A stretch of 64,000 nucleotides of DNA from an uncultured Acidobacteriota bacterium (GCA_963836075.1 CAWIIB010000001.1:1216001-1280000); one strand, 5' to 3'. Shown: positions 21,672 to 61,291, numbered from the stretch's first letter. The notes: generated from the letters alone by a model not told the origin. Program-made: numbers and translations.

Positions 21672-23167
21672 CCTGGCCCAACCAATTCCTCGAACAACAC
21701 CGCTATTTCTTCGGCGATCAACCTGTGCCCTTCCCGGGTCGGGTGGCAGTGGTCCAGGAAGAGGGATTCCCTTCCCTCCCTGTTGAACGCTGAAACCGCA
21801 TCCACCAGGGGAACACCATATTTCAACGAGAGTTCCTTCAGCTTTTCCCTGTATGCACTCTTGATCCGCAAAGACAGGTAGTCAAGATCCTTTGCCCTTT
21901 CCAGTTCGGCCTCAGCTTCGCAGAGTTTCCCTTTACTTTTCAGCGCGATACCCAGGTTGTAGTGGAAGACGGGGTATGAAGGGTTCTCGGTGAGGGCCTT
22001 CCGGAAATAGACCTCGGCTGCCGTGTGGTTGCCCTCCTTCAAGTAAAGAACCCCCAGATTGTTGAGGAATGTGGAGTTGTGCGGTTCGGTGAGCAGACGT
22101 TCCTCGTAAAAAGTCCTGTTCGCACCGGGATCACCCTGATCCTCGTAGGCTGATCGGAAGACGGAGATGGAGTAACGGGTGATCTGGTCATGGTCCCTGG
22201 CAAACTGCTCCCAGTCCAGGGCATAGGCGATCTTTCGTTGCAGGAGTTTCTGGGTCCGGTCTGCCATCACCAGTTCACCCTGCAGGTTCCTGATGTCGGA
22301 GAAGAGCTTGAACTGCAAACCGGCAGGCCATTCCAGGGGAACCGGGACGTTCACCATGGCCATATCGATACTGTTCTCTCTGGCGAAAGCGATCATTTTC
22401 TCAAGGTTCAGGTAGTAGTCTTCAGGCAATACCCTGATCACCACCTCCCTGTCCTCCGTACGCTCGCTCCCCAGCCGGTTCTTGATCAGCAGGATGATTT
22501 TTTCCATGAACCTGTAGGTGGCGAGGTTGTGCAGAGCGTCGAGGAAGCTCACGAACCGAGCGTTCCGGTGAACGAGCTCCTTGTCGGAAATATAGCCGCT
22601 CATCGAGGCATCGTTATTGCCGAAATAGGTCAGGATCAGGTCGGGTGAGTATTTCAATCCATAATTTTGAAGATAAAGCAGGCCCTGCAGGGAGGTGTAG
22701 CCGGAAACCGCCGCATTGACCAGTTCGAACTTTTTCCCGGGGTATCGCCGATCCAGGATTTCCACCAGCTGTTCCCCGAAAGCATGCTCTCTCTGTTTCA
22801 AGCCCAGGCCCACGGGAGTGGAATCCCCCAGCAACAGAATTCTGTAAGTGTCCCGGGGTTTGGGGATGGCAATGTCAGGGCCCAGCAGACCATCGTGATT
22901 GGTCCGCAGGAGGGGTTGGCGAACATCAGGTTTGAACTTCCACAGCAGCAGAGGGTCGCTCTGGTGCACTCCCCGGAAACGGGAGAAGAGCTCGTGCTGC
23001 CAGAGCTTGTTTCCGTGGATCAGCTTCTCCTGTCCAGTTCTGGAGGAAATGGCGTGAAAACCCAGCTCCAGGATCCTCAAAGCCCCCTCCAGGAACAGGA
23101 TGGGAGAAACGATGAGGATCACTTTGATCAGAATATGTTTGATCTTGAGACTGGATATCAGTGACAT
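21668..23167 (-). CDS. Membrane-anchored SGNH/GDSL hydrolase with an inserted TPR
   Basis: N-terminal TM, LLLGDST, NAAVSGYTS, YFGNND, terminal DHCHP; TPR FLNNLGVLY..HYNLG. Confidence 0.85.
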   Translation of the reverse strand: MSLISSLKIKHILIKVILIVSPILFLEGALRILELGFHAISSRTGQEKLIHGNKLWQHELFSRFRGVHQSDPLLLWKFKPDVRQPLLRTNHDGLLGPDIAIPKPRDTYRILLLGDSTPVGLGLKQREHAFGEQLVEILDRRYPGKKFELVNAAVSGYTSLQGLLYLQNYGLKYSPDLILTYFGNNDASMSGYISDKELVHRNARFVSFLDALHNLATYRFMEKIILLIKNRLGSERTEDREVVIRVLPEDYYLNLEKMIAFARENSIDMAMVNVPVPLEWPAGLQFKLFSDIRNLQGELVMADRTQKLLQRKIAYALDWEQFARDHDQITRYSISVFRSAYEDQGDPGANRTFYEERLLTEPHNSTFLNNLGVLYLKEGNHTAAEVYFRKALTENPSYPVFHYNLGIALKSKGKLCEAEAELERAKDLDYLSLRIKSAYREKLKELSLKYGVPLVDAVSAFNREGRESLFLDHCHPTREGHRLIAEEIAVLFEELVGPG

Positions 23168-23306
23168 TTCAGATACTCGGCATCAGCTGAATTCGATTAT
23201 TGGAATCCAACTGTAGCGGATTCAGCCCAGGCCCATCAAGAGCCCACCCGGAATCACACAAGCGGAAATCTTATCGATAATATTTATAGATTGTTATTGC
23301 CGCAGG

Positions 23307-23315
23307 TGATATAAT
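23307..23315 (+). promoter_or_regulatory. Consensus extended -10 promoter
   Basis: TGaTATAAT in an AT-rich intergenic region 80 bp upstream of 23395. Confidence 0.55.
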
Positions 23316-23394
23316 ATCGACAGATTTAGTAGACGATTCAGCAGAGTGCCCCCGGTCAAACATCGACGGAGACAACTCCTGGAAGGAGAATCAA

Positions 23395-23847
23395 ATGTCA
23401 ACCCATCTGACGAAAATCCTCGTTGTCCTGGCAATGACCATGCTCTTCGCCCCCGCGGCCCAGTCCGAAGTTCTCGGAGTTACACCCACTCTCGATCTGG
23501 AACTGACCTGCTCACCGGAGAAATTCACCCTCCCCGGCGACCTCCTGTTCAGTATCGAAGCCGTCAATATGACCGACCACCCGCGCATCTACTGGGGCCG
23601 CATAAACGTCGCCCTGGGCCAGGGACAAGTGATCCGGAACTGGCGGTTGGAGTTCGATCAGACTGTTGGAGGGCGCCAGACCTACAACAAACAGTTCAAG
23701 ATCAGGATTCCCGCCCTCCCCGGGTTTGCCGGAAACTATCGCTTCAAGTGCACCGCCATTGACATCACCCCGCCCGCGATGATCAATGGAATTCCCGCCG
23801 GCTACCGTGCCCGGAGCGAATGCATCGTGGGGATGATTCTCCCGTAG
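23395..23847 (+). CDS. Small secreted protein; free-standing copy of the domain at the C-terminus of the 38795..40672 protein
   Basis: AAGGAG RBS; signal peptide; LTCxP..TLP, WR, PAL..G, D.TP and PAGY..CxV pattern shared with that C-terminus. Confidence 0.8.
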   Translation: MSTHLTKILVVLAMTMLFAPAAQSEVLGVTPTLDLELTCSPEKFTLPGDLLFSIEAVNMTDHPRIYWGRINVALGQGQVIRNWRLEFDQTVGGRQTYNKQFKIRIPALPGFAGNYRFKCTAIDITPPAMINGIPAGYRARSECIVGMILP

Positions 23848-23897
23848 GACCGCGCCAGGAGGTATCAGGGAGGGACGTACGGAGCATGGTCGGGGTA

Positions 23898-25757
<1,860 letters not shown>

Positions 25758-28137: not shown

Positions 28138-29424
28138 ATGGCCGACAAATCGTTCAACGCCTTTGAAATGGCACAGACCCAGTTTGACCGGGTGGCTGAC
28201 CTGCTCGATCTCGACCCCTCCTCCAGGGAGCTGCTGCGCCAGCCCCTGCGGGAGTATCACTTCAGCATTCCGGTGCGGATGGATGACGGCGCGGTCAAGG
28301 TCTTCCGCGGGTTCCGGGTCCAGCACAACGATGCCCGGGGACCCTGCAAGGGCGGTATCCGCTTCCACCCCCAGGAAACGGTGGACACGGTGCGCGCCCT
28401 ATCGATGTGGATGACCTGGAAGTGCGCGGTGGTGGACATCCCCCTGGGCGGCGGCAAGGGCGGCGTGATCTGCGACCCGCACAACCTGAGCCAGCGGGAA
28501 CAGGAGCTGATCTGCCGCGGCTGGGTGCGCCAGCTGGCAAAGAACGTGGGGCCGGTCTCCGATGTTCCGGCACCGGACGTGATGACCAGCGGCCAGCACA
28601 TGCTCTGGATGCTCGACGAGTTCGAGACGATCCACGGCGGGAAGTACCCCGGGTTCATCACCGGCAAACCGGTGGGCATGGGCGGATCACTGGGCCGCAC
28701 CGAGGCCACCGGCTACGGGGTGATCTACACCGTTCGCGAAGCGCTGCATCAACTGGGCATCGCCCCGGAGAGCACCACGGCCAGTGTCCAGGGTTTCGGC
28801 AACGTGGCCCAGTTCGCCATCGACCTCTACAGCCAGATGGGCGGCAAGGTGGTCTGCGTTTCCTGCTGGGACCAGGGTGACCAGACCTCCTATTCCTTCC
28901 GCAAGACGGACGGCATCCAGCTGGAGGTCCTCAAGGGAATCACCGACCGCTTCGGCGGTATCGACAAGGACAAGGCCCGGGAGCTGGGCTACGAAGTGCT
29001 GCCCGGCGACGCCTGGCTGGAGCAGGAGGTGGACCTCCTCATCCCGGCGGCGCTGGAGAACCAGATCACTGGCGACAATGCGGACAAGCTCAGCAAACAG
29101 GTCAAGGTCATCGCCGAAGGGGCCAACGGTCCCACCACCCCGGAGGCCGACCGGCTGATCGAGGAGCGGGGCATCTTCCTCATCCCCGACTTCCTGGCCA
29201 ACGCCGGCGGGGTCACCTGCAGCTACTTCGAGCAGGTGCAGTGCAACATGAACTACTACTGGGAGAGGGACGAGGTCCTGGAGAAACTGGATCTGCAGAT
29301 GACCGCGGCCTTCAGGGCGGTGAGCGAGCTGGCGGCAAAGCGCAAGCTCTACACCCGCGACTCGGCCTATGTCATTTCCATCGGCCGGGTGGCCCAGGCC
29401 TGCCGCAACCGCGGCTGGGTCTGA
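28138..29424 (+). CDS. gdhA: Glu/Leu/Phe/Val dehydrogenase (glutamate dehydrogenase)
   Basis: GFRVQHNDARGPCKGGIRF, GGGKGG, DVPAPD, GGSLGRTEATGYG, QGFGNV, EGANGP, ANAGGV. Confidence 0.92.
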   Translation: MADKSFNAFEMAQTQFDRVADLLDLDPSSRELLRQPLREYHFSIPVRMDDGAVKVFRGFRVQHNDARGPCKGGIRFHPQETVDTVRALSMWMTWKCAVVDIPLGGGKGGVICDPHNLSQREQELICRGWVRQLAKNVGPVSDVPAPDVMTSGQHMLWMLDEFETIHGGKYPGFITGKPVGMGGSLGRTEATGYGVIYTVREALHQLGIAPESTTASVQGFGNVAQFAIDLYSQMGGKVVCVSCWDQGDQTSYSFRKTDGIQLEVLKGITDRFGGIDKDKARELGYEVLPGDAWLEQEVDLLIPAALENQITGDNADKLSKQVKVIAEGANGPTTPEADRLIEERGIFLIPDFLANAGGVTCSYFEQVQCNMNYYWERDEVLEKLDLQMTAAFRAVSELAAKRKLYTRDSAYVISIGRVAQACRNRGWV

Positions 29425-29452
29425 TCCCGAAAGCCCGCCGGGGAGGGACGAC

Positions 29453-32400
29453 GTGAACAAGCAGTTGAACTGCCTCCACCGCCTCGAGGAGATCCTCGCC
29501 GACACCGACGCCCCGCTGGCCGATGTCTGCGGCCGGCTGCTGCAGGTACTGCCCGACGGCTGGCACCGCCCCGAGGATTGCGGGGTGTGCCTCATCGTGG
29601 AGGGCGAGCGGTTCGAAAGCCCCGACTTCGACACGGCCGGGTGGTCGAAGACCGAGGACATCCTCGCCGAGGGAAAGGTCTGCGGCACCATCACCGTCTC
29701 CTACGGCGACCAGCCGCCCGAAAGCGGCGCCGGGCCGTTCACCCCCGAGGAATCCCGCCTGCTGCGCACCGTGTCCATGCGGCTGGGCCGCTACCTGACC
29801 CACAAGCGGACCCGCGGGATCAGGCACGAGCTGGAGCAGGCCAGCAAGGGGCTGATCGACCGCACCACGGGCCAGTGGCGGGCGGTACTGGAGATGAGCC
29901 GCCAGACCAACCGGCGCTTCTACCTCGGCCTGGCGCGCAAGATGCTCAACCATCTCAGTTGGAGCGGCGTGCCCGAGGCCGAGCAGTTGCTGCAGAAGCT
30001 CGGCATCTGCTCCCACGATTCCGAGGCCGAGGAGCTGCTCAAAGACTGGAACGTGCCCGGCGAGCTGAAGCGCCAGGCCGAGCTTTCCGAGGACCTCAGC
30101 GAGGTGGCCTTTGCCATTGCCGCCGCCCACCTCGACGACAAGGAGATCCTGGCCCTGATCAAACGCTGGATCCAGGAGGGCCAGCTGAACTTCCTGGCCC
30201 GGGTGGTCAACCGCCACCTCTCCATGGCCGAGGTGGCCGACGCGCTGCAGCGCTACGAGTTCCTCTCCCCGGACGAGAGCGCCATCGAGCCGGCGAACAA
30301 GCGGGGCATCACCGTGGCCCTGATCCGTCGCTTCCTCGGCGACCAGTTGGAATACATCAACGTGGCCCAGCGTTACTTCGAGCCGCGTGATTTCTACCAG
30401 TTGCTGAAACGGATCATCTTCTCCGCCGAAAGCCACGGCAAGTTGGGCGGCAAGGGCGCCGGCCTGCACCTGGCGGCACAGATCCTGCGCCGCGAGGCCA
30501 AGCAGAACGAGTTGCTGGCCAACGTCCGCCTGCCCAAGACGTGGCACATCACCTCCGACGTGGTGCTCAACTTCATGCACCACAACGGTTTCGAAGAGGT
30601 GCTGGAGCAAAAGTACAAGGACACCAAGCAGATCCGCCTGGAATACCCCCACATCGTCCAGGACTTCAAGAGTGGGTTCTTCCCCCAGGAAATCGTGGCC
30701 GGCCTGGCCGCGGCACTGGACGATCTCGGTGACCAGCCGATCATCGTCCGCAGCTCCAGCCTGCTGGAAGACCGGCTGGGCTCGGCCTTCTCCGGCAAGT
30801 ACAAAAGCCTCTTCCTGGCCAACCAGGGCAGCAAGGGGATGCGGCTGGAGGCGCTGATGGCTGCTGTGGCCGAGGTATTTGCCTCCACTTTCAGCCCCGA
30901 CCCCATCGAGTATCGCGTGGAGCGGGGGCTGATCGACTACGGCGAGGAGATGGGGGTACTGATCCAGGAGGTGGTGGGCACCCGGGTGGGCCACTACTTC
31001 CTGCCCTCCTACGCCGGGGTGGCTTTCAGCAACAACGAATTCCGCTGGTCGCCGCGCATCCGCCGCGAGGACGGCCTGCTGCGGCTGGTGCCCGGCATGG
31101 GCACCCGGGCAGTTGACCGGCTGGGCGACGACTACCCGGTGCTGGTGGCCCCGGGGCAGCCGGGTCTGCGGGCCAACGTCAGCATCGACGAGGTGCTGCG
31201 CTACTCGCCGCGCAAGATCGACCTCATCGACCTGAAGACCAACCAGTTCGTCACCATCGAGCTTGCCTCGTTCATCCGTGAGCACGGACACGACCTGCCC
31301 GGGCTGAACCGGATGATCTCCATCTATCGCGATGGCCACCTTGAGAAGCCGTTCGGTATGGAGGACCTCACCGAATGCGATTCGGTGGTCACCTTCGAGG
31401 GGCTGACCGGAATTACACCGTTCGTCAAGCGGATGAAGGCGATTCTCGACACGCTGCAGAAAGCGCTGGGCACCCCGGTGGACATCGAGTTCGCCTCGGA
31501 CGGCGAGGACTTCTACCTGTTGCAGTGCCGGCCCCAGAGCTACGCCAAAGAGTGCCGGCCGGCTCCGATACCGCGAAAAATCAGCCCCGAGCGGGTCCTG
31601 TTCACCGCCCACCGCCACGTCTCCAACGGCGCCGTCCCCGGCATAACCCACGTGGTGTACGTCGACCCGCGCAGCTACGCCGAGTTGGAGAGCCAGGAGG
31701 AACTGCTGGCCGTGGGCCGGGCGGTGAGCCGGCTGAACCAGGCTTTGCCCCGGCGGCACTTCATTCTCATCGGCCCCGGCCGCTGGGGCAGCCGCGGCGA
31801 CATCAAGCTGGGGGTCAACGTCACCTACTCCGATATCAACAACACCGCGGCCCTGATCGAAGTGGCCTTCAAGAAGGGAAACTACGTCCCCGACCTCTCC
31901 TTCGGCACCCACTTCTTCCAGGACCTGGTGGAGGCCAACATCCACTACCTGCCGCTCTACCCTGACGACGACGAGGCCCGCTTCAACGAGGAGTTTTTCA
32001 CCGGCAGCGACAACGCGCTGGCCGAGTTTGCCCCGGAGTTTGCCGCATTGGCCGACACGGTGCGGGTGATCGACGTGCCGGCGGTGACAGAGGGCCGGAC
32101 ACTGGAACTGCTGATGAACGGCGACCTGGACGAAGCGGCGGCCATCTTCTCCCGGCCGGGGTTCGACCTGACGGAGCCGGGGGAGGTGGAGGGTGCCGGC
32201 ACGGACGACGGCGCGCCCTTCATTGACCGGCTGAACGTGTGGCAGGCGGAGATGGCGGACCGGGTGGCCGCGGAAACGGATTCGGCCCGTTTCGGGATCG
32301 AAGCGCTGTGGCACCGTGTCGACCCCGGCGGCGAGGACGAACGAATTGTCCTGCTGGTCCAGTTCAAGGAAGCCGGAGCGCAGCGGGGGGCCTACCAGGA

Positions 32401-32590
32401 CTGGCTGGACGGCTGGAACCACGGACTACTGGAGCTTTTCCAACAGCGCACCGGCCACCGGCCGGAAAAGATACTGGACGCCCACTTCCTTACTGCGGAC
32501 CAGGTCAGGGGTGACGAGGGCCGGGCCACCGGCATCGGGGCCGAAGAGAACCCCGCCAGGCCGCTGGCGCTGCCCGGGCGCCGGAGGTGA
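29453..32590 (+). CDS. PEP/pyruvate-binding (PPDK N-terminal, ATP-grasp) domain protein with a GAF-like N-terminus and no PEP-utiliser TIM barrel
   Basis: GKLGGKGAGL, VRSSSLLED, AFSGKYKS, EEMGVLIQEVVG, PVDIEFA, LLQCRP, GPGRWGS, SFGTHFFQD. Confidence 0.85.
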   Translation: MNKQLNCLHRLEEILADTDAPLADVCGRLLQVLPDGWHRPEDCGVCLIVEGERFESPDFDTAGWSKTEDILAEGKVCGTITVSYGDQPPESGAGPFTPEESRLLRTVSMRLGRYLTHKRTRGIRHELEQASKGLIDRTTGQWRAVLEMSRQTNRRFYLGLARKMLNHLSWSGVPEAEQLLQKLGICSHDSEAEELLKDWNVPGELKRQAELSEDLSEVAFAIAAAHLDDKEILALIKRWIQEGQLNFLARVVNRHLSMAEVADALQRYEFLSPDESAIEPANKRGITVALIRRFLGDQLEYINVAQRYFEPRDFYQLLKRIIFSAESHGKLGGKGAGLHLAAQILRREAKQNELLANVRLPKTWHITSDVVLNFMHHNGFEEVLEQKYKDTKQIRLEYPHIVQDFKSGFFPQEIVAGLAAALDDLGDQPIIVRSSSLLEDRLGSAFSGKYKSLFLANQGSKGMRLEALMAAVAEVFASTFSPDPIEYRVERGLIDYGEEMGVLIQEVVGTRVGHYFLPSYAGVAFSNNEFRWSPRIRREDGLLRLVPGMGTRAVDRLGDDYPVLVAPGQPGLRANVSIDEVLRYSPRKIDLIDLKTNQFVTIELASFIREHGHDLPGLNRMISIYRDGHLEKPFGMEDLTECDSVVTFEGLTGITPFVKRMKAILDTLQKALGTPVDIEFASDGEDFYLLQCRPQSYAKECRPAPIPRKISPERVLFTAHRHVSNGAVPGITHVVYVDPRSYAELESQEELLAVGRAVSRLNQALPRRHFILIGPGRWGSRGDIKLGVNVTYSDINNTAALIEVAFKKGNYVPDLSFGTHFFQDLVEANIHYLPLYPDDDEARFNEEFFTGSDNALAEFAPEFAALADTVRVIDVPAVTEGRTLELLMNGDLDEAAAIFSRPGFDLTEPGEVEGAGTDDGAPFIDRLNVWQAEMADRVAAETDSARFGIEALWHRVDPGGEDERIVLLVQFKEAGAQRGAYQDWLDGWNHGLLELFQQRTGHRPEKILDAHFLTADQVRGDEGRATGIGAEENPARPLALPGRRR

Positions 32591-34286: not shown

Positions 34287-34291
34287 TTAGC

Positions 34292-34419
34292 GGCGACAGT
34301 CACCTATTTCATGGCCTTGCGGCAGCGAATGCAAAAACTGGTGACTGTCACCCGGGGATATGAGCAGTAAAACTCACAAATAAAATAGGATGGCTTGTTT
34401 AAAATAGGTGGCTGTCACC
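34292..34419. repeat. MITE/REP-like element with 18-bp terminal inverted repeats and an internal GGTGACTGTCACC palindrome
   Basis: GGCGACAGTCACCTATTT (34292-34309) against the reverse complement of AAATAGGTGGCTGTCACC (34402-34419) matches at 16/18; palindrome at 34340-34352. Confidence 0.6.
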
Positions 34420-34477
34420 ACTTTAATATCCCCTGACAGTTTCCGATAAGGGGGGTATGAATCCGAACCAGCCGCTG

Positions 34478-34486
34478 TGGTATCAT
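34478..34486 (+). promoter_or_regulatory. Extended -10 promoter of the amidase-actin-TPR operon
   Basis: TGgTATCAT followed by an AT-rich tract, about 25 bp before the ATG. Confidence 0.45.
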
Positions 34487-34510
34487 ATTTTTTTTACATG
34501 AGCATTCCAG

Positions 34511-35563
34511 ATGCGTCAGAAGCAGCGGATCAAGCGCTCCCTGATCAGGGAGCTGGTTGAAGAGAATATCGAGGCCATCGAGCGTCGGCCCCGGGGATCC
34601 CTGCGCCGGCGCCGCCGGTTCAATCGGGCCCGGCTGTTCCACTGGATTCTCAGTGGCGTGGCCGGGATGGCGGTGGGGGCCCTGCTCTTTTTCACGGTCC
34701 TCGACACCGGGGGCCGGCTCTACCGCCAGTGGCTTGGAGGAGACCCGGATCCGGGTCCCGCCGAGACCGACGGCTCGGTTCTCGACACGCTGGGGGAGGC
34801 GGTCCTGCCGGCCGGGTTCACCCGCCCCGAACCGCTGGCGCCCGATGTGATCCCGCTGGCCGTCAACCGGATCGCCATCGACGCCGGACATGGCGGGGAC
34901 GAGGAGGGGACGATCACCGAGTCGGGGCTGATGGAGAAGGAGCTGACCCTCGACATCGCCCACAGGCTCAGACGGCTCCTCGAATCGGCCTCCTATTCGG
35001 TGACCATGATCCGCACCGGGGACGAGGACGTACAGCTGAAGGAAAGGGCCAGGACGGCCAATGAGGCACGGGCGGACATCTATCTCTCGATCCACGTCAA
35101 CTGGATCCGCAACCGCACGGTGCGCGGGGTGGAGACCTACTATCTGGGGCCCACCGACGACCCGCACATTCGGAAGCTGGCCTCTTTGGAGAACCGCGAT
35201 TCCGGATACTCGGTGGCCGATTACCGGCGCCTGCTGGACTCGATTTACGCCGATGCCCGGAGCTTCGAGTCGCGGCGCCTGGCCACCGCGGTCCAGCGTT
35301 CGCTGTTCAGCAGCCTGCGCCGCACCACACCCGAAATCAGTAACCGCGGGGTCAAGTGCGCGCCCTTCGTGGTGCTGGTGGCCACGAATATGCCGGCCAT
35401 CCTGGCCGAGGTCTCCTGCCTGTCCAACGAACATGAGGCCCGGCTGCTGGCCCGGCCCGCCTATCGTCAACAGATCGCCCGAGCTCTTTTCGAGGGGATC
35501 CGAAATTACAGTGCACCGCCGGAAACCGCAGACAGCGGCGGCGGAAAAGGGAAGGAATCATGA
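34511..35563 (+). CDS. N-acetylmuramoyl-L-alanine amidase (Amidase_3), inner-membrane anchored
   Basis: IAIDAGHGG, EKELTL, LKERA, YLSIHVN, GVETYY, PFVVL, MPAILAEV; basic N-tail followed by one TM helix. Confidence 0.93.
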   Translation: MRQKQRIKRSLIRELVEENIEAIERRPRGSLRRRRRFNRARLFHWILSGVAGMAVGALLFFTVLDTGGRLYRQWLGGDPDPGPAETDGSVLDTLGEAVLPAGFTRPEPLAPDVIPLAVNRIAIDAGHGGDEEGTITESGLMEKELTLDIAHRLRRLLESASYSVTMIRTGDEDVQLKERARTANEARADIYLSIHVNWIRNRTVRGVETYYLGPTDDPHIRKLASLENRDSGYSVADYRRLLDSIYADARSFESRRLATAVQRSLFSSLRRTTPEISNRGVKCAPFVVLVATNMPAILAEVSCLSNEHEARLLARPAYRQQIARALFEGIRNYSAPPETADSGGGKGKES

Positions 35564-36591
35564 GTACAGAGCAAGGTGATCTCTATATCGGTATCGACCT
35601 CGGGACATCGCGCAGCGCCATCGCCACATCCGAAGGCCAGCGTCACGTGGTGGAGAGCTACGTCGGCTGGCCGCTGGACATGGTGGCCCGGAAGGTGATC
35701 AAGCGGGACGTGCTGATCGGCCGGGAAGCGCTGGACAACCGGATGATGCTCGACCTGCACCGGCCGCTGGAACGGGGGCTGCTCAAGGAGGGCTCGGAAA
35801 AGGACCAGGCCGCGGTGCGCCAGCTGATGTCCCACCTGCTGGACCTGGCCGGGGTTCGCGAGATCCGCGAGAAAGGGGCCAAGGTGCGGGCAGTGGTTGG
35901 TGTGCCGGCCGAAGCCCTGCGGGTAAACAAGGAGCACCTGCGTGAAGCGCTCCAGGGCCTGGTGGACGGCCTGATCATCGTTTCCGAGCCGTTCGCCGTT
36001 GCCTACGGCATGGAAGCCCTGCTCCACGCCCTGGTGATCGACGTGGGAGCCGGCACCACCGACTTCTGCATGATGAAAGGCCACTACCCCACTGACGAAG
36101 ACCAGCGGACTCTGCCCAACGCCGGCGACTGGGTGGACGAACAGCTGGCCACCCTGCTGGCCGAACGGAAAGCCGAGGTCAAGGTTTCGATCCACACCGT
36201 GCGGCAGTGGAAGGAAAACTGGAGTTTTGTCGGTGACAACAGCAAACCGCTGAAGGTCAACGTTCCGGTGGGCGGAAAACCGACGGAAATCGACATCACC
36301 GACGAACTGCGCGTGGCCTGCGAAGGGCTGATCGCTCCGGTGTCGGAAACGATGATCGACCTCATTGCCGCCACCGAAACCGAATACCAGGAACGTGTGC
36401 GCCAGAACATCATCCTCGCCGGTGGCAGCTCGGCCATCCGGGGTTTTGCCAAACGCCTGGAGGACGAACTCGCCGACTACGGCGGCGGCAAGATCAAAGT
36501 GGTGGATGACCCAGTCTTTGCCGGGTGTGACGGGGGGCTGGCGCTGGCCATCGATGCACCCGGCGCCGATTGGGAAAAACTGACCAACTGA
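35560..36591 (+). CDS. mamK: MamK-family bacterial actin (MreB/Mbl superfamily)
   Basis: GIDLGTS, VVGVPA, VSEPFAVAYG, IDVGAGTTDFC..KG..P..EDQ, KENWSFVG, ACE, EYQ..QNIILAGG, DPVFAGC..W; a MamK-like rather than MreB-like pattern. Confidence 0.85.
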   Translation: MSTEQGDLYIGIDLGTSRSAIATSEGQRHVVESYVGWPLDMVARKVIKRDVLIGREALDNRMMLDLHRPLERGLLKEGSEKDQAAVRQLMSHLLDLAGVREIREKGAKVRAVVGVPAEALRVNKEHLREALQGLVDGLIIVSEPFAVAYGMEALLHALVIDVGAGTTDFCMMKGHYPTDEDQRTLPNAGDWVDEQLATLLAERKAEVKVSIHTVRQWKENWSFVGDNSKPLKVNVPVGGKPTEIDITDELRVACEGLIAPVSETMIDLIAATETEYQERVRQNIILAGGSSAIRGFAKRLEDELADYGGGKIKVVDDPVFAGCDGGLALAIDAPGADWEKLTN

Positions 36592-36605
36592 AACTCGGGG
36601 AAAAT

Positions 36606-37067
36606 ATGAGTGATGAAATCACAACCGCCGCCTGGGAGGGCATCAACCTCTGCCGGGGCGGCTCCTGGAGCCAGGGAGTAACCCGCCTGACCCGGGTGGC
36701 CCGCGAGAAGCATCCGGACACCAAACTCCCCGGGATCTTTTACTCTTATCTGGGGTATGGCATCGCCCTTTGTGAGCACCGGGTCCGCGAGGGCCTGGTC
36801 CTCTGTGAGCAGGCGGTGAAGACCGGGTTCTACGAGCCGGAGAACTACCTCAATCTCTCGCGGGCTTTCCTGCTGCGCAAGAATCGCCGGGCGGCGGTGA
36901 AGTGGCTGAACAAGGGGCTCAAAGTGGATCCAAATCACGAGGGCCTGATCAGCCTGCAGCAGGACATGGGCGTCCGGAAGCGGCCGATCATCCCCTTCCT
37001 GTCCCGGGACGCCGCCTTCAACATTTTGCTGGGCAAAATGCGGCACAACCTGACCAAACGCCGCTGA
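36606..37067 (+). CDS. Tetratricopeptide repeat protein
   Basis: YSYLGYGIA..LCEQAV..PENYLNLSRAFL..GLKVDP; starts 14 nt after the actin stop. Confidence 0.8.
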   Translation: MSDEITTAAWEGINLCRGGSWSQGVTRLTRVAREKHPDTKLPGIFYSYLGYGIALCEHRVREGLVLCEQAVKTGFYEPENYLNLSRAFLLRKNRRAAVKWLNKGLKVDPNHEGLISLQQDMGVRKRPIIPFLSRDAAFNILLGKMRHNLTKRR

Positions 37068-38794: not shown

Positions 38795-40672
38795 TCAGGG
38801 ACCATACCCTTCCACAGTGCAACTGTCGCTGTCGGTGTAGCCCGCCGGCGGATAGGGCGGCCGGTTGTAGGGATATGGCGTGACGTCCTGGGCTTGCAGG
38901 GTGAAGGTATTCAGCCCCACCAGCGTACCGAGGGCCGGCAGGTTCTGCATCCAGGAACTGGTGAACATCGCCTCCGGACCGATGTTGGTGAAGCCGGCCC
39001 GCCAGGAGGGAAAGACCGTCCCGTTGGCCAGCCGGGCCTCCAGTCGGCCGGCCATGCGGCGGGACTGCCCGTCGTAGTGATTGAGCAGCGAGGCCGTGAT
39101 CAGGGTGCCGAAGGGCAGGGTGCCGGCGGCAGGTTCGCAGGTCAATATACAGCTCACCGTGACCGGGTTCTGGTAGTCGCTGAGCAGAAGATAGCCCTGG
39201 CCCGATTTCGATCCCCCTTCATTGTCTAACGGTGCCCCGATCAGGAAGTCGTCGAAACCGTTGCCGTCCACGTCGCCCGCCCCGGCCACGGCATACCCGG
39301 AATAGCCCCCCCACCGCTCGCCATGGAATGACGCATCGGCGAGAGAGAGACCGGTGTCCATGGCCCAGCCGGCGGCCCGGCCCAGGATCAGGTAGGTCTG
39401 CCCGGCATCGCTGCTCCCCTCGTCGCTGCCGGAAGCCCCGATGAGAAAATCGTCGAACCCGTCACCGTTGACGTCACCGGTTCCGGCCACGGTACCGGCC
39501 CAATCATCTGCAGCTTCCCCGAGAAACGAGGCATCAGCGGCCGAGAGACTGACGTCGGTTTCCCAGCCCGCAGCCCGGCCCCGGACGAGGTATGCCTGCC
39601 CGGCACCATCACCGGCCTCGTCGTTGCCGGAAACACCGATGAGGAAATCGTCGAACCCGTCACCATTGACATCACCGGTTCCGGCCAGGCTTCCACCCGA
39701 TTGATCGGCAGCATGCTCTCCCAGCCAGGAGGCGTCGGCATGGGAGAGGGAGAGGTTAAAACTCCAGCCCGAGGCCCGGCCCAGGATGAGATAGGTCTGG
39801 CCCACATCCGCACTGCCCGGGATATTCCTCCCCCGGGCGCCGACGAGAAAATCGTCGTACCCGTCACCGTTGACGTCCCCGGCCCCGGCCAGGCCAGAGC
39901 CCGAATAGTCGTTCGGCGCTTCGCCGCGAAGCGAGGCATCGGCGGCGGAGAGGGGTGTGTCCATGGCCCAGCCTGTTTCCTTGCCAAAAATGATGTAGGT
40001 CATACCGGCTAAGGAAGGGCCAATGGAACCGATGATGATGTCGTCATATCCGTCACTGTTCACGTCACCGGCCCCGGTGGCGGACAGCCCCGAGCGGTCG
40101 CCGGCATTTTCACCGAGAAACGAGGCATCAACGCTGGAAAGGGGCTTGTCCATCACCCAGCCATCCGGACGGCCCAGGATAAGGTAGGTCTGCCCCGCGC
40201 TGTCGCCGGCTTCATCGTTTTGCTGGACCGCGATGAGAAAATCGTCATACCCGTCGCCGTTCACATCGCCGGCCCCCGCCCGGCGCAGGGATCGGCCCGA
40301 CGAGTCGGCCGGGGCCTCCCCGATAAACGAAGCGTCGGCGCTGCTGATCAGCGTGTCCCTGGCCCAGCCGTCCGGCCTGCCGAGGATGAGGTAGGTCTGC
40401 CCGGCACTGCTGCCGCCCTCGGAATTGCCGTAGCTGCCGATGAGGAAATCGTCATACCCGTCGCCGTTCACGTCACCCACACCGGCCAGTGATTGCCCCA
40501 GATAGTCACCCTGGTCTTCGCCCCAGAAGGAGGCATCGGAGATCCCCAGACTCGTGTCGCTCACCCAGTCGGCCAAGGTGACTGCGGACACAGCCAGGCA
40601 GAGAACCAGTGACAGGCCAAAACCGGTCAGGCGCCTGAGCCGTAGAGATCTGCAAGGTGTGCGAATCATCAT
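38795..40672 (-). CDS. Secreted FG-GAP/integrin-alpha repeat protein with a C-terminal two-Cys domain
   Basis: AGGAGGGAG RBS; signal peptide; about 7 repeats of GAGDVNGDGYDDFLIG..AGQTYLILGR; distinct 120-aa C-terminal domain. Confidence 0.88.
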   Translation of the reverse strand: MMIRTPCRSLRLRRLTGFGLSLVLCLAVSAVTLADWVSDTSLGISDASFWGEDQGDYLGQSLAGVGDVNGDGYDDFLIGSYGNSEGGSSAGQTYLILGRPDGWARDTLISSADASFIGEAPADSSGRSLRRAGAGDVNGDGYDDFLIAVQQNDEAGDSAGQTYLILGRPDGWVMDKPLSSVDASFLGENAGDRSGLSATGAGDVNSDGYDDIIIGSIGPSLAGMTYIIFGKETGWAMDTPLSAADASLRGEAPNDYSGSGLAGAGDVNGDGYDDFLVGARGRNIPGSADVGQTYLILGRASGWSFNLSLSHADASWLGEHAADQSGGSLAGTGDVNGDGFDDFLIGVSGNDEAGDGAGQAYLVRGRAAGWETDVSLSAADASFLGEAADDWAGTVAGTGDVNGDGFDDFLIGASGSDEGSSDAGQTYLILGRAAGWAMDTGLSLADASFHGERWGGYSGYAVAGAGDVDGNGFDDFLIGAPLDNEGGSKSGQGYLLLSDYQNPVTVSCILTCEPAAGTLPFGTLITASLLNHYDGQSRRMAGRLEARLANGTVFPSWRAGFTNIGPEAMFTSSWMQNLPALGTLVGLNTFTLQAQDVTPYPYNRPPYPPAGYTDSDSCTVEGYGP

Positions 40673-41001
40673 CCATCTCCCTCCTGTCCGACTGCCGGAC
40701 ACTCGATGAGTATTAACTATGTTGTAAGTTAATCCCTGACGGTTGTCAAGTTCGGCCAAATCCCGTCACAGGATGAAAGTGACCTCCGGGGCAAACAAGT
40801 GGAGAGGGAGTTGCTGGATTGATCCAAAACACCGGTTATTTCCAGCCCCCCTCGATCACCGCGGCGAGGGTCTGGAAATAGAGATTCAACCGGTGGCCGA
40901 ACCGGCCGGGATCGGACTCCAGGCCATCGAACTCAGCCTTGATCAGGTCCACCAGCAGTTCCCTGGTTGGCACGTTTTCCTTTGCCGCACAGCCCAGGGG
41001 G

Positions 41002-42279
41002 TCAAGGTTTCGCGGCGGCCCGCAGCAGGGCTTCGATTTCATCCGAATCGGCGTAGTCAAGGGCGGTCTTGCCTTCGTCGTTCTCGATGGCGGGGTCGGC
41101 GCCATATTCGAGGAGCAGCTCGACCATGGCTTTGCTGCTCTTGGCGGCCGCGTTCATCAGGGCCGTCACACGGTCCCCTTCCGTGATCACCGCGTTTACG
41201 TCGGCGCCGTTGTCCAGCAGCCAGCGAACGATATCCAGGTCCTCGTTTCGGGCAGCGAGAAACAACAGCGTGGTCCCGTCGTCGGCACGGGCCAGGGGGT
41301 CTGTACCGGATTCAGCCAGCCTCAAGGCGACGTCGTGGTGTTCCTGTTTGATGGCCCGGAACATCGGCACACGGCCGAAATGGTCACGCGCATTGACATC
41401 GGCGCCGTTGGCCAACAACAGGTCCACGATCTCGAGATTTCCCTGCTCGGCCGCCAGATGCAGCGGTGTGAGCTGCAGGGTCATGTTGACGTCGTCTCCC
41501 TGCTCGATCAGGGACTTGACCACCGCAACGGTCCCGTGTTCCGCAGCCGTCACCAGGTTCCAATCGTCACCACCACTGAAGGACGACAGATGGAACAGCA
41601 GGATGTACAGTATCGTCATGAGTGTCATGACAATCATGTAGCCGCCCATCCCGAGGACGTACGCGGCGACTGTTTTGAGCACGGTGAGGACCCGGCCTCC
41701 TAAAAAACGTGTGGAAGCATAGCTGAAGTAGGCCAGGGTCACCGGAATGCCGAGGATCGCCGGATGGAGGGAGAACAACGTTGACAGGGGAAGAAGCACA
41801 ACGCCGAACAGCGCTGTATGACCAACGGTGTACAGGGCAAAAACGGCCATCTCGGCCAGGTTGAATCCTGTCCGGCGAAAAAAGAGGCGGAGCATCACGG
41901 CAAAGGGGATCAGGATACCCAGCGACGTGTAGAGCATGTTTTTGAACAACAGCCGCATGAGGTCCGACATGATGGCCACCTGGGCCGGACTCAGCTCGGG
42001 ATTGTCGGTCGTGCCAGCGATCATCGACTCCTGGAAGCCCACGCTGGTCTGGATCAGCACGCTGATCGCGGTGGCCACCAGCAGGTAGGCGAAGGGGTTG
42101 GCGTAGAGCAGCCGTTCGCCTTCGATATAGCGCCGAATCATCTCTCCCGGTTCGGTGAACAGCTCCTTGAACGTGCGCAGCCACCCGTTCTCCAGGCTGA
42201 AGAAGCGGGTCAGCACATCGTGCATGATCTGCCGGAGGGTCAGCCGCTGTCCGTGTGTGTTCTTTTCCAGATCAGGCAT
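41002..42279 (-). CDS. DUF3667-like membrane protein fused to ankyrin repeats
   Basis: TFKELFTEPG..YIEGER.LYANPF plus TM helices; TPLHLAAEQGNLEIVDLLLANGADVN repeats. Confidence 0.85.
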   Translation of the reverse strand: MPDLEKNTHGQRLTLRQIMHDVLTRFFSLENGWLRTFKELFTEPGEMIRRYIEGERLLYANPFAYLLVATAISVLIQTSVGFQESMIAGTTDNPELSPAQVAIMSDLMRLLFKNMLYTSLGILIPFAVMLRLFFRRTGFNLAEMAVFALYTVGHTALFGVVLLPLSTLFSLHPAILGIPVTLAYFSYASTRFLGGRVLTVLKTVAAYVLGMGGYMIVMTLMTILYILLFHLSSFSGGDDWNLVTAAEHGTVAVVKSLIEQGDDVNMTLQLTPLHLAAEQGNLEIVDLLLANGADVNARDHFGRVPMFRAIKQEHHDVALRLAESGTDPLARADDGTTLLFLAARNEDLDIVRWLLDNGADVNAVITEGDRVTALMNAAAKSSKAMVELLLEYGADPAIENDEGKTALDYADSDEIEALLRAAAKP

Positions 42280-54899: not shown

Positions 54900-56111
54900 A
54901 TGGTGAACATCAGATACTTCGACTTCCGTGACCTCTTTCTCGCGCCGCGCGCCGGCCTCTCCGGAAAAAAGATCTGGATCGCCACCAGCGGCCTGTTGCT
55001 GGCCCACCTGGGGTTTGCCGTCTTCACCTACCTGGCCCGCATCGCCACCGGGATGACCCTCGGCGGCATCTGGTCCACCCAGGGGCTCTGGCCGGTACCC
55101 GCCTTTGCCCAGTATTCCTGGCCCGGGTGGCTGCTGCAGTTGCTGGGCCTCGGCTTCGCCGGCATGGTGCTGCTGCTGGCGGCCACCGCGGTGAGCAGTC
55201 TGGCCTACCAGCAGTTCAGGGGCGACGACTTCTTCTCCACCGGCGACGCCTGGTCCTTTGCCCGCAGCCGCTGGATAGCCCTGATCCTGGCCCCGCTGGT
55301 CATCGCCGGCCTGATCGTCTTTCTGGTGGTCGCCGGCATGCTGCTGGGACTGATCGGCAAGATCCCGCTGATCGGCCCGCTGGTGGTGGCGGTTCACATG
55401 CCGCTGGTGGTCTTCTTCGCCATGATCGCCGCGTTCTCCGCCCTGGTCTTCTTCACCCACTTCTCCCTCGGCCCGGCCATCATCAGCACCACTTCGGGCG
55501 ATGCCATGGACGTGCTGGTCCAGCTCTTCTCCTGTGCCTGGTCCCAGCCCTGGCGCTTCCTGACCTACCAGTTTCTGCTCAAGCTGATCTCCGTCTTCGC
55601 GGTCCACGTGCTGGTCTTCTTTGTCATTGGCGGCTTCTGGATCAGCCGCTGGGTCATCGCCCCGGTGATGGGCAGCAGTTTCGCCCAGATGCTGCAGATC
55701 GGCTACGAGTTCGCCCGGTTCCGCTGCCCGGTGACTTCCACCGCCTGCGCCCTGGCCCGGGAAAACTGCGGCATCGATCTGGCATCCCGGCTCCCCGCTC
55801 TGCAACAGCGCTGCCTCGACTCCCTCTTCGCCGCCGACCTCACCGGCGCCGGGACAGCGGTCACCATCGCCGGGCACATCTTCGGGGTGGTCCTCTTCCT
55901 CACCATCATCGCCGTCACCGGCTACTTCTTCGCCACCTGGTTCTCCGGGCAGACCATCGTCTATCTCATCCTTCGCCGGCGTAAGGACGGTGAGGACCTG
56001 CTGGAGTTCAACGAAGAAGACGACTGGGAACCGGCCGGTTTCGGGGACGACGAGGACGAACAGGCGGCGGAGAACGAATCGGAGCCCGCCGGGGACGAGG
56101 CAGCGGACTGA
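54900..56111 (+). CDS. Hypothetical polytopic membrane protein with an acidic C-terminus
   Basis: About 7 TM helices; YLILRRRKDG followed by a D/E-rich tail; GGAG RBS. Confidence 0.75.
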   Translation: MVNIRYFDFRDLFLAPRAGLSGKKIWIATSGLLLAHLGFAVFTYLARIATGMTLGGIWSTQGLWPVPAFAQYSWPGWLLQLLGLGFAGMVLLLAATAVSSLAYQQFRGDDFFSTGDAWSFARSRWIALILAPLVIAGLIVFLVVAGMLLGLIGKIPLIGPLVVAVHMPLVVFFAMIAAFSALVFFTHFSLGPAIISTTSGDAMDVLVQLFSCAWSQPWRFLTYQFLLKLISVFAVHVLVFFVIGGFWISRWVIAPVMGSSFAQMLQIGYEFARFRCPVTSTACALARENCGIDLASRLPALQQRCLDSLFAADLTGAGTAVTIAGHIFGVVLFLTIIAVTGYFFATWFSGQTIVYLILRRRKDGEDLLEFNEEDDWEPAGFGDDEDEQAAENESEPAGDEAAD

Positions 56112-56185
56112 ACGGACCGACTACAGGCCAAATCGTGCCAACAACACCGGTTTTCCTTCGTCAGGGTGAATCCCCCGGCATAAAT

Positions 56186-56706
56186 TCCTTCTCAATCCTG
56201 GGCGATACGCTGGTTGGGCAAATGCTCCCGGCCTGGCGGCCGGAGTTCAAGGTTCGGGAGGCGGCCCAACAGAAGTTCTACTGGTTTGATCCGGGCGTGG
56301 CCCGGGCTGCTGCCGGCCTGATCCGTGACCCTGCAGACAGCCTCTGACAGGGCACTCTGCTGGAAACTCTGGTTTACCACGAACTGCGGGTCTACAACGA
56401 CGTCTGCCGAAAACAGCGCCCGCTGGCCTACAACCACACGCCGGCAGGCGTCGAAGTGGATTTCATTGTGCAGACCGCCTCGCGACAGGCAAGGAAGCTC
56501 CCCTAGGTGACGGCCATTGAGGTCAAGCGGGGTGAGCGCGGGAACCGGAAGTGAGAAAAACCGATGCGAAATCTCGCCAAACGCCGGGGGGGGGTGGAGC
56601 GGATGATCGGGGTGTACTGCGGAAAGCGCAGATACCGCTTCGACGAGGTTGAGGTCTGGCCCGTCGAAGATTTCGCAAAAGCGCTGTTCAACGGTGAGGT
56701 TTCCTG
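56186..56706 (+). pseudogene. Decayed C-terminal (DUF4143-type) half of an AAA+ ATPase
   Basis: One frame reads ..KFYWFDPGVAR..DSL*QGTLLETLVYHELR..GVEVDFIV..LP*VTAIEVK..RK*EKPM; in-frame stops at 56345, 56504 and 56552; the ATPase N-terminus is absent. Confidence 0.75.
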
Positions 56707-56799
56707 AACTCCATGGCGCATCACACTCAAAAAGAAACACTTCATTGACCGGCAGCACTTACCCTCATGCTCTTTCCCCTCCGTCATTCTTTTTGAACG

Positions 56800-56828
56800 T
56801 TGACATTTGAATATTCCCGCCATAAATT
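56800..56828 (+). promoter_or_regulatory. Sigma70-type promoter
   Basis: TTGACA-17 bp-TAAATT in an AT-rich intergenic region. Confidence 0.5.
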
Positions 56829-57040
56829 GAAAATATCCTTTCGGTTTCACTCAACAAGAATTGAATCCTCCGGAACAGGCTTCAGATTATGTGGATACAT
56901 TCATCTTGAAGCCAACTTGTGCTGTCAACGAGTTCAAAAAATGTTGTCAAACTTATTGGCATCAACCACATTCTAGGGCATTAACGTGTGGACCACATAT
57001 TCATTTAACAAGGGAGGAACACAGTTCATTGAAGTAGAAA

Positions 57041-57070
57041 CTGCCTGCCTGCCTGCCTGCCTGCCTGCCT
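57041..57070. repeat. (CTGC)7.5 tetranucleotide microsatellite
   Basis: Perfect 30-bp ctgcctgc... run. Confidence 0.95.
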
Positions 57071-57194
57071 AAGAATCGCCCCCGTCAGAACTCGAGTTCG
57101 CTGTCAGCATCAAGATCACTTCATACACAGCATTTCCTTCAAAATATATTTACCCACAACTTGTCGCTTTCGGACACATTTGATGAGGTGAACC

Positions 57195-60100: not shown

Positions 60101-61291
60101 TATACCGCCATCTATAAAGAACTCCACCTTGCAGGCTGGCATCCAATCAATAATGCAGTGACCCACGTTGATGGGGTTCCACTGCCCCTCTTTGTTGAGC
60201 GTTTTGGCGATACTATCGGCTGGGGGGATGAAAACGCGAAATACTTTACCGTTCTCAACAACGACACCCTTTCTTACACCCTTGTCCAAATGACAGAGGA
60301 TGAAATCGCAGGGACGCCATCACCGGAGATCTATTTCGAAGACATTCCGGATATTCAGACACTTGATGATACGATTAAATGTAGTCTTGTGCAGAACTGT
60401 GAAGGGTACCCTTCAAGGGAAGATGCCGACGATCACTTTATATTGAAAAGGAAAACCTTCCACCTTGAGATTCACGACCCCGTTCAATTCGGCCTTCATA
60501 ACGGAAACCTATATGCCAAACAGTTGGTCAGCAACGCGGATGACGCGGAAGTCTGCAACTGGCCGCTCATCCAACCGGCAGAGTTCGATGACGGCACCCT
60601 CATGGGCAGATATTCGATCGTGAGAAAAAATTCTAGTATCATAATCGGTGGCGCTAGACTTGGGACCACTCAAACCAAGATCACATTGGAGGACAAGGCC
60701 CTCCTGGTCTTTAAAATCTGGCCCAGCCTCACGGTAAACAACGGTACATCAGGGGAATGCCGGGATGGGTCCGGTGAGGGCTCGTGGACCGAGTCATCGA
60801 GGCTCTGGTCATATTTCGAGATGTACGGGGACGGCTGGCAGCGCTTGGACTCCGATGCCGGGTATGGCGGAAACCTGGACCTGGTTCAGTCGAGCAGCCC
60901 AGGCGCCTGTGTGAACTACAAATTCACCATCGGCGAAAGCGGCAGATATAGCATCCGGGTCCACCTCCCGGTTTCACCCCAGACTCCGGCGCCGGCACGA
61001 TACAAAGCCTACGTCCTCGATTATCTGGAAGGACCGGTGGGGCCCGCGCCGCCCGGTGATCCGGTCTGGAGCCACCTCCTTGACCCGGGCGATTCAGATA
61101 CTTATAACCAGGAGTGGGACGAGGAAGGGTTCGTCGAGATCGGCGCCATCGACGTCACCCTGACCGAACCGGCTCTGGTCACCGTGGTGATCAGACTGAG
61201 CGGCAGCGGAAGCGGCACCGACCGAACCGCCGCCGGCTCGGGCTACCTCCTGGCCGACGCGGTTAAACTCGTCCCGGAGGATGAAGAATGA
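57195..61291 (+). CDS. Large secreted protein (putative glycoside-hydrolase-like core, golvesin/CBM-like C-terminal domain), frameshifted between about 57404 and 57569
   Basis: GAGGTG RBS and signal peptide in ORF 57195..57569; the second frame is open from 57404 into 57590..61291; motifs GVFLDN, AGWHPI..FVERFG..YFTVLN and a terminal GRYSIRVH..LADAVKLV. Confidence 0.65.

Follow-up and report, generated by a model that had tools for sequence, protein, structure and literature searches.

A Conserved Gene Pair of a Membrane-Anchored Amidase and a MamK-Like Actin in Uncultured Bacteria, With a Predicted Contact Between the Two Proteins

Introduction

The aiming of wall-cutting enzymes is a central question in bacterial growth, division and shape. 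The known answers are periplasmic targeting domains and activators and, in one recent case, a bactofilin that grips a peptidase by its cytoplasmic tail. At the inner face of the membrane, an actin-family protein binds the cytoplasmic end of a bitopic protein with a periplasmic wall role in the pairs MreB-RodZ and FtsA-FtsN. MamK, a further bacterial actin, has so far been tied to magnetic organelles. The partners in the bactofilin case are BacA and the bitopic M23 peptidase LmdC, encoded by a putative lmdC-bacA operon; LmdC binds the polymer directly with its N-terminal tail, which lies in the cytoplasm, and the polymer in this way places the enzyme (PMC10945521). In this study, we analyzed a stretch of 64,000 nucleotides from an uncultured Acidobacteriota bacterium (GCA_963836075.1, CAWIIB010000001.1:1216001-1280000; the whole stretch is called the window below), in which a three-gene unit encodes a peptidoglycan amidase with a membrane anchor, a MamK-like actin and a small protein with a TPR fold.

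An earlier note on this DNA had proposed that the actin is linked to the amidase through the cytoplasmic tail of the enzyme, with the TPR protein as adaptor. Our analyses suggested a conserved module in which the MamK-like actin holds the bitopic amidase by its tail and places peptidoglycan splitting from the cytoplasm, a reading that we regard as fairly probable and well short of certain.

Results

A scan of one genome per species gave 190 stretches encoding a relative of the actin, of which the best 80 were kept as loci. All of these 80 came from uncultured genomes, and their record titles named Acidobacteriota (Thermoanaerobaculia, Holophagales and others), Binatia, delta-type and Syntrophobacter lineages, one Chloroflexota bin and one Rhodospirillaceae bin. 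In 79 of the 80 loci, the gene directly upstream of the actin encodes an amidase homologue; tblastn found 78 of these, and the other is in locus L070, where the amidase (4856-5971) showed 48% identity over 356 amino acids in BLAST without composition adjustment and a phmmer value of 2e-97. In the 80th locus (L057), a contig end leaves the last ~37 codons of the amidase. The default composition-based statistics had hidden the L070 amidase, and default tblastn counts of synteny on G+C-rich genomes can be too low; later tblastn runs were made with composition adjustment off. Among 77 junctions, the two frames overlapped in 33 (by 4 nt in 26; two overlap values, -223 and -53, are frame-extension artefacts) and were separated by a gap of 0-30 nt in 42.

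The same pairing was observed in other samples. Among 61 genomes of the phylum, seven carried the actin, the window's own genome included, and the amidase adjoined it in all six others, two of which are same-genus genomes already among the 80 loci. As the opposite control, we took 301 genomes of the alphaproteobacterial order that holds one of the loci (L080). On the MamK model, 32 genomes of this order scored 485-549 bits and five scored 384-433 bits. No amidase was present within 1.5 kb at any of 20 high-scoring mamK loci of that order, nor within 10 kb in two longer stretches around two of those same 20 genes, and one high-scoring locus proved to be a complete mamH-I-E-J-K-L-M-N-O-P-A-Q-B operon, in which all the NCBIfam models exceed their cut-offs. 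The low-scoring, window-like actins of the order had the amidase nearby in all three loci that were fetched, as did L080. The gene order, which the earlier note had wished to see compared across genomes, is therefore kept at the related loci (79/80), in the phylum sample (6/6) and at none of the true mamK loci (0/20). The amidase and the actin are the real, conserved two-gene unit, and the conserved adjacency of a polymer gene and a bitopic wall hydrolase gene by which a module of the BacA-LmdC type is known was found in 79 of the 80 loci.

The first protein of the pair matched Pfam Amidase_3 (PF01520) with 162.6 bits (cut-off 27) over residues 121-332, and its best relatives of solved structure were AmiB (3NE8), AmiA (8C2O) and AmiC (4BIN). 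The NCBIfam equivalog models for these three enzymes failed at 92.4 of 400, 94.6 of 532 and 86.3 of 700 bits for AmiA, AmiB and AmiC, respectively. In an alignment of 40 sequences, H127, E142 and H195 were invariant and E300 was at least 90% conserved; we take these residues to be the zinc ligands and the catalytic glutamate. Residues 215-260 form an insert that aligned without a break to 3NE8 and 8C2O, whereas the best alignment to four short amidases lacking it (4RN7, 5EMI, 1JWQ and 7TJ4) ended at residue 212-217. E227-N228 within the insert was invariant in the 40 sequences. The AmiA/B/C-like segment that had been claimed is thus kept, and by analogy with these enzymes the insert would be an autoinhibitory segment that blocks the active site.

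One strong hydrophobic segment, residues 46-64, was found in this protein, with a Kyte-Doolittle mean of 2.24 over 19 residues (the next window, at 1.71, is in the catalytic domain). The 44 residues ahead of it hold 16 lysines or arginines and five acidic residues, in agreement with the membrane anchor and the charged tail of about 42 residues with an arginine run that the earlier note had described. Because the tail is basic, the positive-inside rule suggests a cytoplasmic N-terminus and a periplasmic catalytic domain.

Within this tail, about residues 5-25 make up a helix motif, RIKRSLIRELVEENIEAIE in the window, followed by the arginine run (the RRRRRF stretch) and the membrane helix. A pattern search found the motif, beginning at about residue 7, in 68 of 78 amidase homologues; of the remaining ten, five are uncut frames in which the motif can be recognized by eye, and locus ends truncate the other five. 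Across the 40 aligned sequences, which reach down to 37% overall identity, N19 was invariant and K8 and V16 were at least 90% conserved, and the periplasmic linker showed no conservation in the same alignment. The motif is kept in the most distant linked pair (L014, actin identity 48%). A pattern search in 150 MamK-family representatives, long N-terminal extensions included, did not find the motif.

Complex prediction was carried out with the actin and tail residues 1-42, each given as a custom alignment of 40 rows, in three runs and with three controls. The ipSAE values of the actin-tail pair were 0.88, 0.87 and 0.87 (median 0.87), the best of the three controls reached 0.00, contacts agreed between runs by at least 96%, and the partner pLDDT was at least 65. 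The pass mark of the predictor is reached by 116 of 157 solved complexes and by 2 of 215 mismatched pairs, counts that apply only roughly to custom alignments. Tail residues 3-25 were predicted to lie against actin residues 124-155, 174-176 and 329-341, with K8, V16 and N19 among the touching residues. The C-terminal helix of the actin, the helix that follows the VSEPF strand and a neighboring-subdomain loop would form the docking site. This site is presumably the cleft between subdomains IA and IIA, where ParR binds ParM. Five interface positions are specific to the amidase-linked clade, namely R128, L155, R175, A333 and D337; the rest of the MamK family has L/I/V, mixed residues, T/S, L/M/I and Y/F there, respectively. 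The conserved motif and the predicted complex both agree with the proposed tail link, by which the amidase is predicted to dock on the actin.

The family identity of the actin was consistent among several searches. The best NCBIfam family was MamK (NF040964, 375.5 bits), followed by BeeR (212.6), MreB (50.6) and FtsA (20.4); the cut-offs are 400 bits for MamK, 530 for BeeR and 365.75 for the MreB model TIGR00904. MreB models gave 35-51 bits, with TIGR00904 failing its cut-off at 35.8. Relatives in the same clade scored 369.6 to 425.4 bits on the MamK model, part of them above the cut-off. We also observed that some amidase-linked actins exceed this NCBI cut-off and would be annotated as MamK. 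Against solved structures, the actin matched MamK 5LJW with 262.6 bits (E 6e-77, residues 6-341), 8R2N, which we take to be BeeR, with 145.9 bits, and MreB 4CZF with 31.8 bits. Its identity to the MamK encoded in the verified mamAB operon is 38.7%, and Pfam reported a full-length actin-fold match (MreB_Mbl 59.1 bits, Actin 57.2 bits). Invariant columns among 40 actin sequences were D13, G15, T16, E143, D161, G163-T166, D168, G288 and G289, presumably the phosphate- and adenosine-binding motifs. These scores bear out the view, first formed from motifs, of an actin of MamK rather than MreB type.

Phylogenetic analysis comprised two quick runs of IQ-TREE under LG+C20, with the MreB of the same genome as root, the second omitting three long or odd rows (P0143, P0258 and P0268); true MamK was labeled by means of the solved structures and one verified mamAB operon. 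The linked clade included 23 amidase-linked rows and two representatives lacking context, 25 tips in all, with SH-aLRT support of 91 (100 for a core of 21 rows). The verified MamK proteins together with P0146 and P0195 formed another clade of six (support 99) inside the remaining MamK-like sequences, and the BeeR-like proteins formed a clade of their own (support 96). In the second tree, the window actin was placed outside the verified MamK clade. It falls in its own clade beside true MamK, and not inside MreB/Mbl, the position that would have spoken against the idea. Since the linked actins branch apart from the verified MamK clade, the window actin is, judged by its sequence, MamK-like, yet neither a magnetosome MamK nor an MreB. 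The tree does not fix the root inside the MamK family and so does not show which function, magnetosome or amidase-linked, is the older; the possibly ancestral role put forward in the earlier note is neither favored nor disfavored by it.

A separate clade of the MamK family (support 99; P0133, P0134, P0137, P0145, P0149, P0152 and P0142) carries N-terminal extensions of about 190-900 residues with a coiled-coil-like or low-complexity look. A fusion of amidase and actin was sought among these long forms, and no Pfam domain was found in their N-terminal parts.

The genome was then searched for magnetosome and wall genes. The assembly comprises 6.23 Mb in 10 contigs, is 94.7% complete and has one MamK-like gene. 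The NCBIfam models for MamP, MamI and MamQ all stayed under their cut-offs on the genome; the MamI model, which had no match anywhere in the first controls, works on the real MamI of the mamAB operon (101.9 bits). Only two CDF genes are present, far apart and both under the MamB/M cut-offs. When the 13 proteins encoded by the verified mamAB operon were searched against the genome, no match was obtained for MamP, N, L, J, I or H, and MamB/M, Q, A, O and E gave scattered matches of 27-44% to generic families (CDF, LemA, TPR and HtrA). Because the models stayed under cut-off and the queries gave nothing or scattered generic matches, there is no detectable magnetosome cluster in the genome, with the unassembled ~5% as a caveat. 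All matches of the genome to the Mam queries, and MreB and MreC, lie outside C1:1216001-1280000, so that no mam or mre gene is present in the 64 kb, as the earlier note had claimed. A true mreB (508 bits) with an adjoining mreC lies about 316 kb from the actin on the same contig, and the genome has two further Amidase_3 genes beyond that of the window. Since mreB-mreC and two other Amidase_3 genes are also present, the amidase-actin module is an additional system. The context of the MamK-like actin remained non-magnetosomal in the search for mam and mre genes, and the displaced mamK that would have explained it otherwise did not appear.

The third protein did not reach the Pfam TPR cut-offs (TPR_2 16.4 against 27 bits, TPR_8 15.8 against 25.7). 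Its AlphaFold2 model (pLDDT 92.2) has eight helices, seven of which build a TPR-type domain of three repeats, with an extended stretch and the last helix after it, and the top Foldseek matches were peptide-binding three-repeat TPR domains, for example 1ELW (target-normalised TM score 0.76, E 2e-4). Its description as a TPR protein is therefore upheld by the fold and not by the profile. The family includes 107 homologues, mostly 40-58% identical, the named ones belonging to Thermoanaerobaculia or Acidobacteriota; P127, F131, L132, R134, N139 and G143 are invariant in a C-terminal stretch at about residues 122-146, which looks like a docking or membrane-binding peptide. The gene follows the actin in two of the 80 loci, both of this genus, and in four of five other carrier genomes searched the homologue matched only at a distance from the actin locus or on a different contig, if contig numbers follow record order. 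With linkage limited to the genus, homologues elsewhere and other third genes in other lineages, the idea of a general adaptor is not supported, and we prefer to view the TPR protein as an accessory specific to this lineage. A fixed partner upstream of the TPR homologues was also considered and rejected, as the recurring "gene" resembles a shadow frame and has no Pfam match.

Other lineages showed other partners. In 33 loci, the gene directly upstream encodes a PilZ protein that continues through a proline-rich linker and a membrane helix into a C-terminal part (for example L078:3428-4876, + strand); this part looks AMIN-like by eye, and Pfam, run on one example, reported PilZ and not AMIN. 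A small membrane protein is encoded downstream of the pair in 10 loci. A PilZ-domain protein identified by Pfam follows in L043 (7154-7864, + strand), with a receiver-like part ahead of PilZ, and L052 has a similar frame. These recurring PilZ proteins hint at an input of cyclic di-GMP (c-di-GMP) to the module. In the window's genome, the search for the PilZ-membrane protein gave just one PilZ match, about 540 kb away and with no long frame around it. No third gene or cargo gene recurred with the pair in all lineages among the 80 loci.

The G+C content of the 224-nt spacer in front of the amidase gene is 45.1%, compared with 63.3% in the window as a whole. The spacer contains three palindromic boxes resembling GGTGACTGTCACC, with starts 48 and 67 nt apart, and these boxes and a block just 5' of the amidase start codon are kept in two aligned same-genus loci; in the contig of one public run, 67 nt between two of the boxes are missing. 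The boxes look like an operator array for some regulator. A simple sigma-70 consensus scan of the spacer found no site and an Rfam search found no family. The AT-rich character of the supposed promoter region is confirmed by the G+C content. In one metatranscriptome library, two contigs (235 and 251 nt) matched the amidase gene with 6 and 8 differences (about 97% identity); the remaining pieces from the RNA search are conserved stubs of 32-41 nt.

The three genes of the unit were all recovered on one strand in the ORF (open reading frame) listing where they had been described (Table 1). ATGA at 35560-35563 joins the amidase stop to the actin start in a 4-nt overlap, and 14 nt separate the actin stop from the ATG of the third gene at 36606, from which its 153 amino acids are counted; a TTG at 36570 is an alternative open start.

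Table 1. Features of the amidase-actin locus, with positions in the window.
Feature	Position	Strand	Basis
Spacer, likely promoter/operator region	34287-34510		45.1% G+C, palindromic boxes
Bitopic N-acetylmuramoyl-L-alanine amidase, 350 aa (probable topology)	34511-35563	+	Pfam Amidase_3, 162.6 bits
Amidase cytoplasmic tail, residues 1-42 (predicted actin-docking peptide)	34511-34636	+	Helix motif, complex prediction
Single transmembrane segment, residues 46-64	34646-34702	+	Kyte-Doolittle
Amidase_3 catalytic domain, residues 121-332	34871-35506	+	Pfam, conserved residues
AmiA/B/C-type insert, residues about 215-260	35153-35290	+	Alignment to 3NE8, 8C2O
MamK-like actin, 343 aa	35560-36591	+	NCBIfam, solved structures, tree
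Cytoplasmic TPR-fold protein, 153 aa	36606-37067	+	AlphaFold2 model, Foldseek

By Pfam, the 5' neighbors of the unit are a PF16949 membrane protein and a PPDK_N-domain protein, and the 3' neighbors a C69 dipeptidase, an FG-GAP protein and an ankyrin protein. Among the related loci compared, none of these flanking genes accompanies the pair outside the genus. Three of the neighbors are a 1073-aa protein with a PPDK_N nucleotide-binding domain (29369-32590, + strand), a 654-aa protein with seven FG-GAP repeat matches (38795-40759, - strand) and a 425-aa protein with DUF3667 and ankyrin repeats (41002-42279, - strand), and none is kept beside the pair elsewhere. Window positions 22001-24000 and 56001-62000 have 53-55% G+C, against 63% for the window, and may be acquired islands.

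Discussion

The reading that we favor may be put as follows. The first gene would encode a bitopic amidase of AmiA/B/C type, in which a short cytoplasmic tail is followed by a single membrane helix, a loose linker in the periplasm and the Amidase_3 domain with its insert, and the second, translationally coupled to it, a MamK-like actin ATPase. The conserved helix of the tail would dock on the actin site, and actin filaments or filament ends at the inner face of the membrane would set the position, possibly also the timing, of the amidase; the splitting of peptidoglycan in the periplasm could in this way be directed from inside the cell. The TPR-fold protein, which is soluble, would have joined the operon in this genus; elsewhere the addition would be a small membrane protein, an M23 peptidase, or a PilZ protein of the upstream membrane type or of the downstream type. 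The module seems to be present in at least 190 species-level genomes. If the reading is true, MamK-type actins would have a second, non-magnetic job, and the short, defined pair of peptide and site could quickly be tested in vitro.

A bolder version of this reading is possible, and we hold it to be rather doubtful. It sees a third actin-based wall machine beside MreB for elongation and FtsA for division, in which a dynamic MamK-like filament would carry or cap the amidase by means of the short helix, seated in a cleft of the actin in the manner of the ParR-ParM plug, and filament growth or turnover would move or gate cleavage, often under the control of PilZ and c-di-GMP. Magnetosome MamK would then be a sister specialisation within one family of cargo-positioning actins.

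Several points weigh against the placement of the amidase by the actin. The actin is missing in 54 of the 61 genomes of the phylum sample, and because of this the role of the module is accessory. The amidase is frame-shifted in two loci, after about residue 240 in L053 and into two pieces in L139, which could be sequencing error or decay. The MamK score of the actin (375.5 bits) is below the curated cut-off of 400, and ATP-dependent polymerisation is assumed from its likeness to MamK and its membership of the family. An amidase with such an insert should need a periplasmic activator, and the operon of the window has none. Among the loci examined, an M23 gene follows the actin in one (L047); this gene (7037-7849, + strand) encodes a Peptidase_M23 protein of LytM type (113.3 bits), starts 5 nt after the actin stop and may serve the amidase as an activator in the periplasm or as a co-hydrolase. 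The two metatranscriptome contigs are weak evidence, too little to show transcription or an operon transcript. The contact between tail and actin is a prediction whose measure is model confidence. The controls of the complex prediction were unrelated proteins and not near relatives, and solved peptide complexes of ParM-ParR, FtsA with the FtsZ tail and MreB-RodZ could give the predictor some memory. Moreover, if the predicted site is buried in the filament, binding may be limited to monomers or filament ends.

Other explanations of the pair have to be considered together with these points. The amidase-like protein might mainly serve as a membrane and wall anchor of the actin filament, whose real task would be another one, such as the placement of cargo. 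The synteny, the tail motif and the predicted contact fit an anchor equally well, the variable third genes (PilZ, TPR and the small membrane protein) could be cargo adaptors, and the known job of MamK is the holding of an organelle in place (PMC11929497). We nevertheless consider an anchor unlikely, since the presumed catalytic and metal residues are invariant or nearly so in 40 homologues, which indicates that enzyme activity is under selection, and no cargo gene recurs with the pair in all lineages. It is quite improbable, in our opinion, that the actin-fold ATPase acts outside filaments, as a chaperone or gatekeeper that binds the signal-anchor of the amidase before insertion or export. The predicted contact at the extreme N-terminus, beside the RRRRRF stretch and the hydrophobic segment, would suit such a role, as would the translational coupling of one-to-one partners; E. 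coli AmiA and AmiC carry twin-arginine signals, and the arginine run of the amidase can be read likewise. Yet many homologues do not keep the double arginine, among them L026, L039 and L061, whose basic residues are single or spaced, and the actin is collinear over its full length with filament-forming MamK (E 6e-77).

Gene order by itself is no proof of interaction, and 7 of 44 blindly chosen neighbor pairs passed the complex test, so that the two genes might be neighbors by historical accident, lacking a common function. We think this very improbable given an adjacency in 79 of 80 loci over several phyla, frames that overlap or nearly abut, a conserved tail motif, and a complex that passes where the controls gave 0.00. 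We give hardly any credence to the view that the gene is a mamK displaced from a magnetosome cluster or left over from one, or that it is a second MreB for rod shape. MamK is indeed the best family match, and labels of JGI name close relatives "rod shape-determining protein MreB"; still, the mamAB queries, the Mam models and the CDF scores revealed no cluster in the 94.7%-complete genome, the actin lies outside the verified MamK clade, MreB models gave it 35-51 bits, and the true mreB-mreC is about 316 kb away. Placement of the amidase by a MamK-like actin thus remains the explanation that we prefer.

Comparison With Known Systems

MamK (5LJW, 5JYG and 5LJV; MamJ and MamL as mamAB neighbors) is the best-matching family and the best solved relative of the window actin. 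In contrast to MamK, the window actin belongs to a separate clade, scores under the MamK cut-off, is accompanied by no magnetosome genes and has the amidase as its fixed partner (0/20 at true mamK loci). The amidases AmiA, AmiB and AmiC (8C2O, 3NE8 and 4BIN), with the activators EnvC and NlpD, which are LytM-domain proteins, align best in catalytic domain and regulatory insert; the window amidase differs from them in that neither a periplasmic targeting domain, such as AMIN, nor a cleavable signal for export is visible, and it shows a membrane anchor and a conserved, probably cytoplasmic tail in their place. BeeR, a three-stranded tubular actin of Verrucomicrobiota, is likewise a MamK relative of non-magnetotactic bacteria, and the accessible part of its description mentions no partner enzyme, the words "amidase" and "operon" occurring 0 times there (PMC11929497). 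The window actin differs from BeeR in its score (212.6 bits against a cut-off of 530) and in the separate clade of the BeeR-like proteins.

As in MreB-RodZ and FtsA-FtsN, an actin-fold protein at the inner face would be linked to the handling of peptidoglycan outside by way of a single-pass protein with a short segment in the cytoplasm. The bitopic partner in those pairs is a regulator or adaptor, whereas here it would be the hydrolase itself, and the window actin is neither MreB nor FtsA by its sequence. The closest parallel is BacA-LmdC of Hyphomonas neptunium and Rhodospirillum rubrum, in which the genes of polymer and bitopic hydrolase likewise stand side by side with the hydrolase first. 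LmdC is also built as predicted for the window amidase, with a short conserved stretch in the cytoplasm at its N-terminus, a single membrane helix and the catalytic domain in the periplasm (PMC10945521). Different from BacA-LmdC, the polymer here would be an actin fold and presumed ATPase, the enzyme is an Amidase_3 protein with an insert and not an M23 peptidase, the tail is a predicted helix and not a beta-hairpin, and the present case comes from sequence comparison and prediction. A full-text literature search of limited coverage found no published description of an amidase paired with a MamK-like actin. The coupling has more of a precedent than the earlier note implied, since the principle is already shown for BacA and LmdC (PMC10945521). 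New would be the actin polymer and the amidase class, and, if our reading is true, the known principle of a filament that grips a wall hydrolase by its tail would extend to a new polymer and a new class of enzyme.

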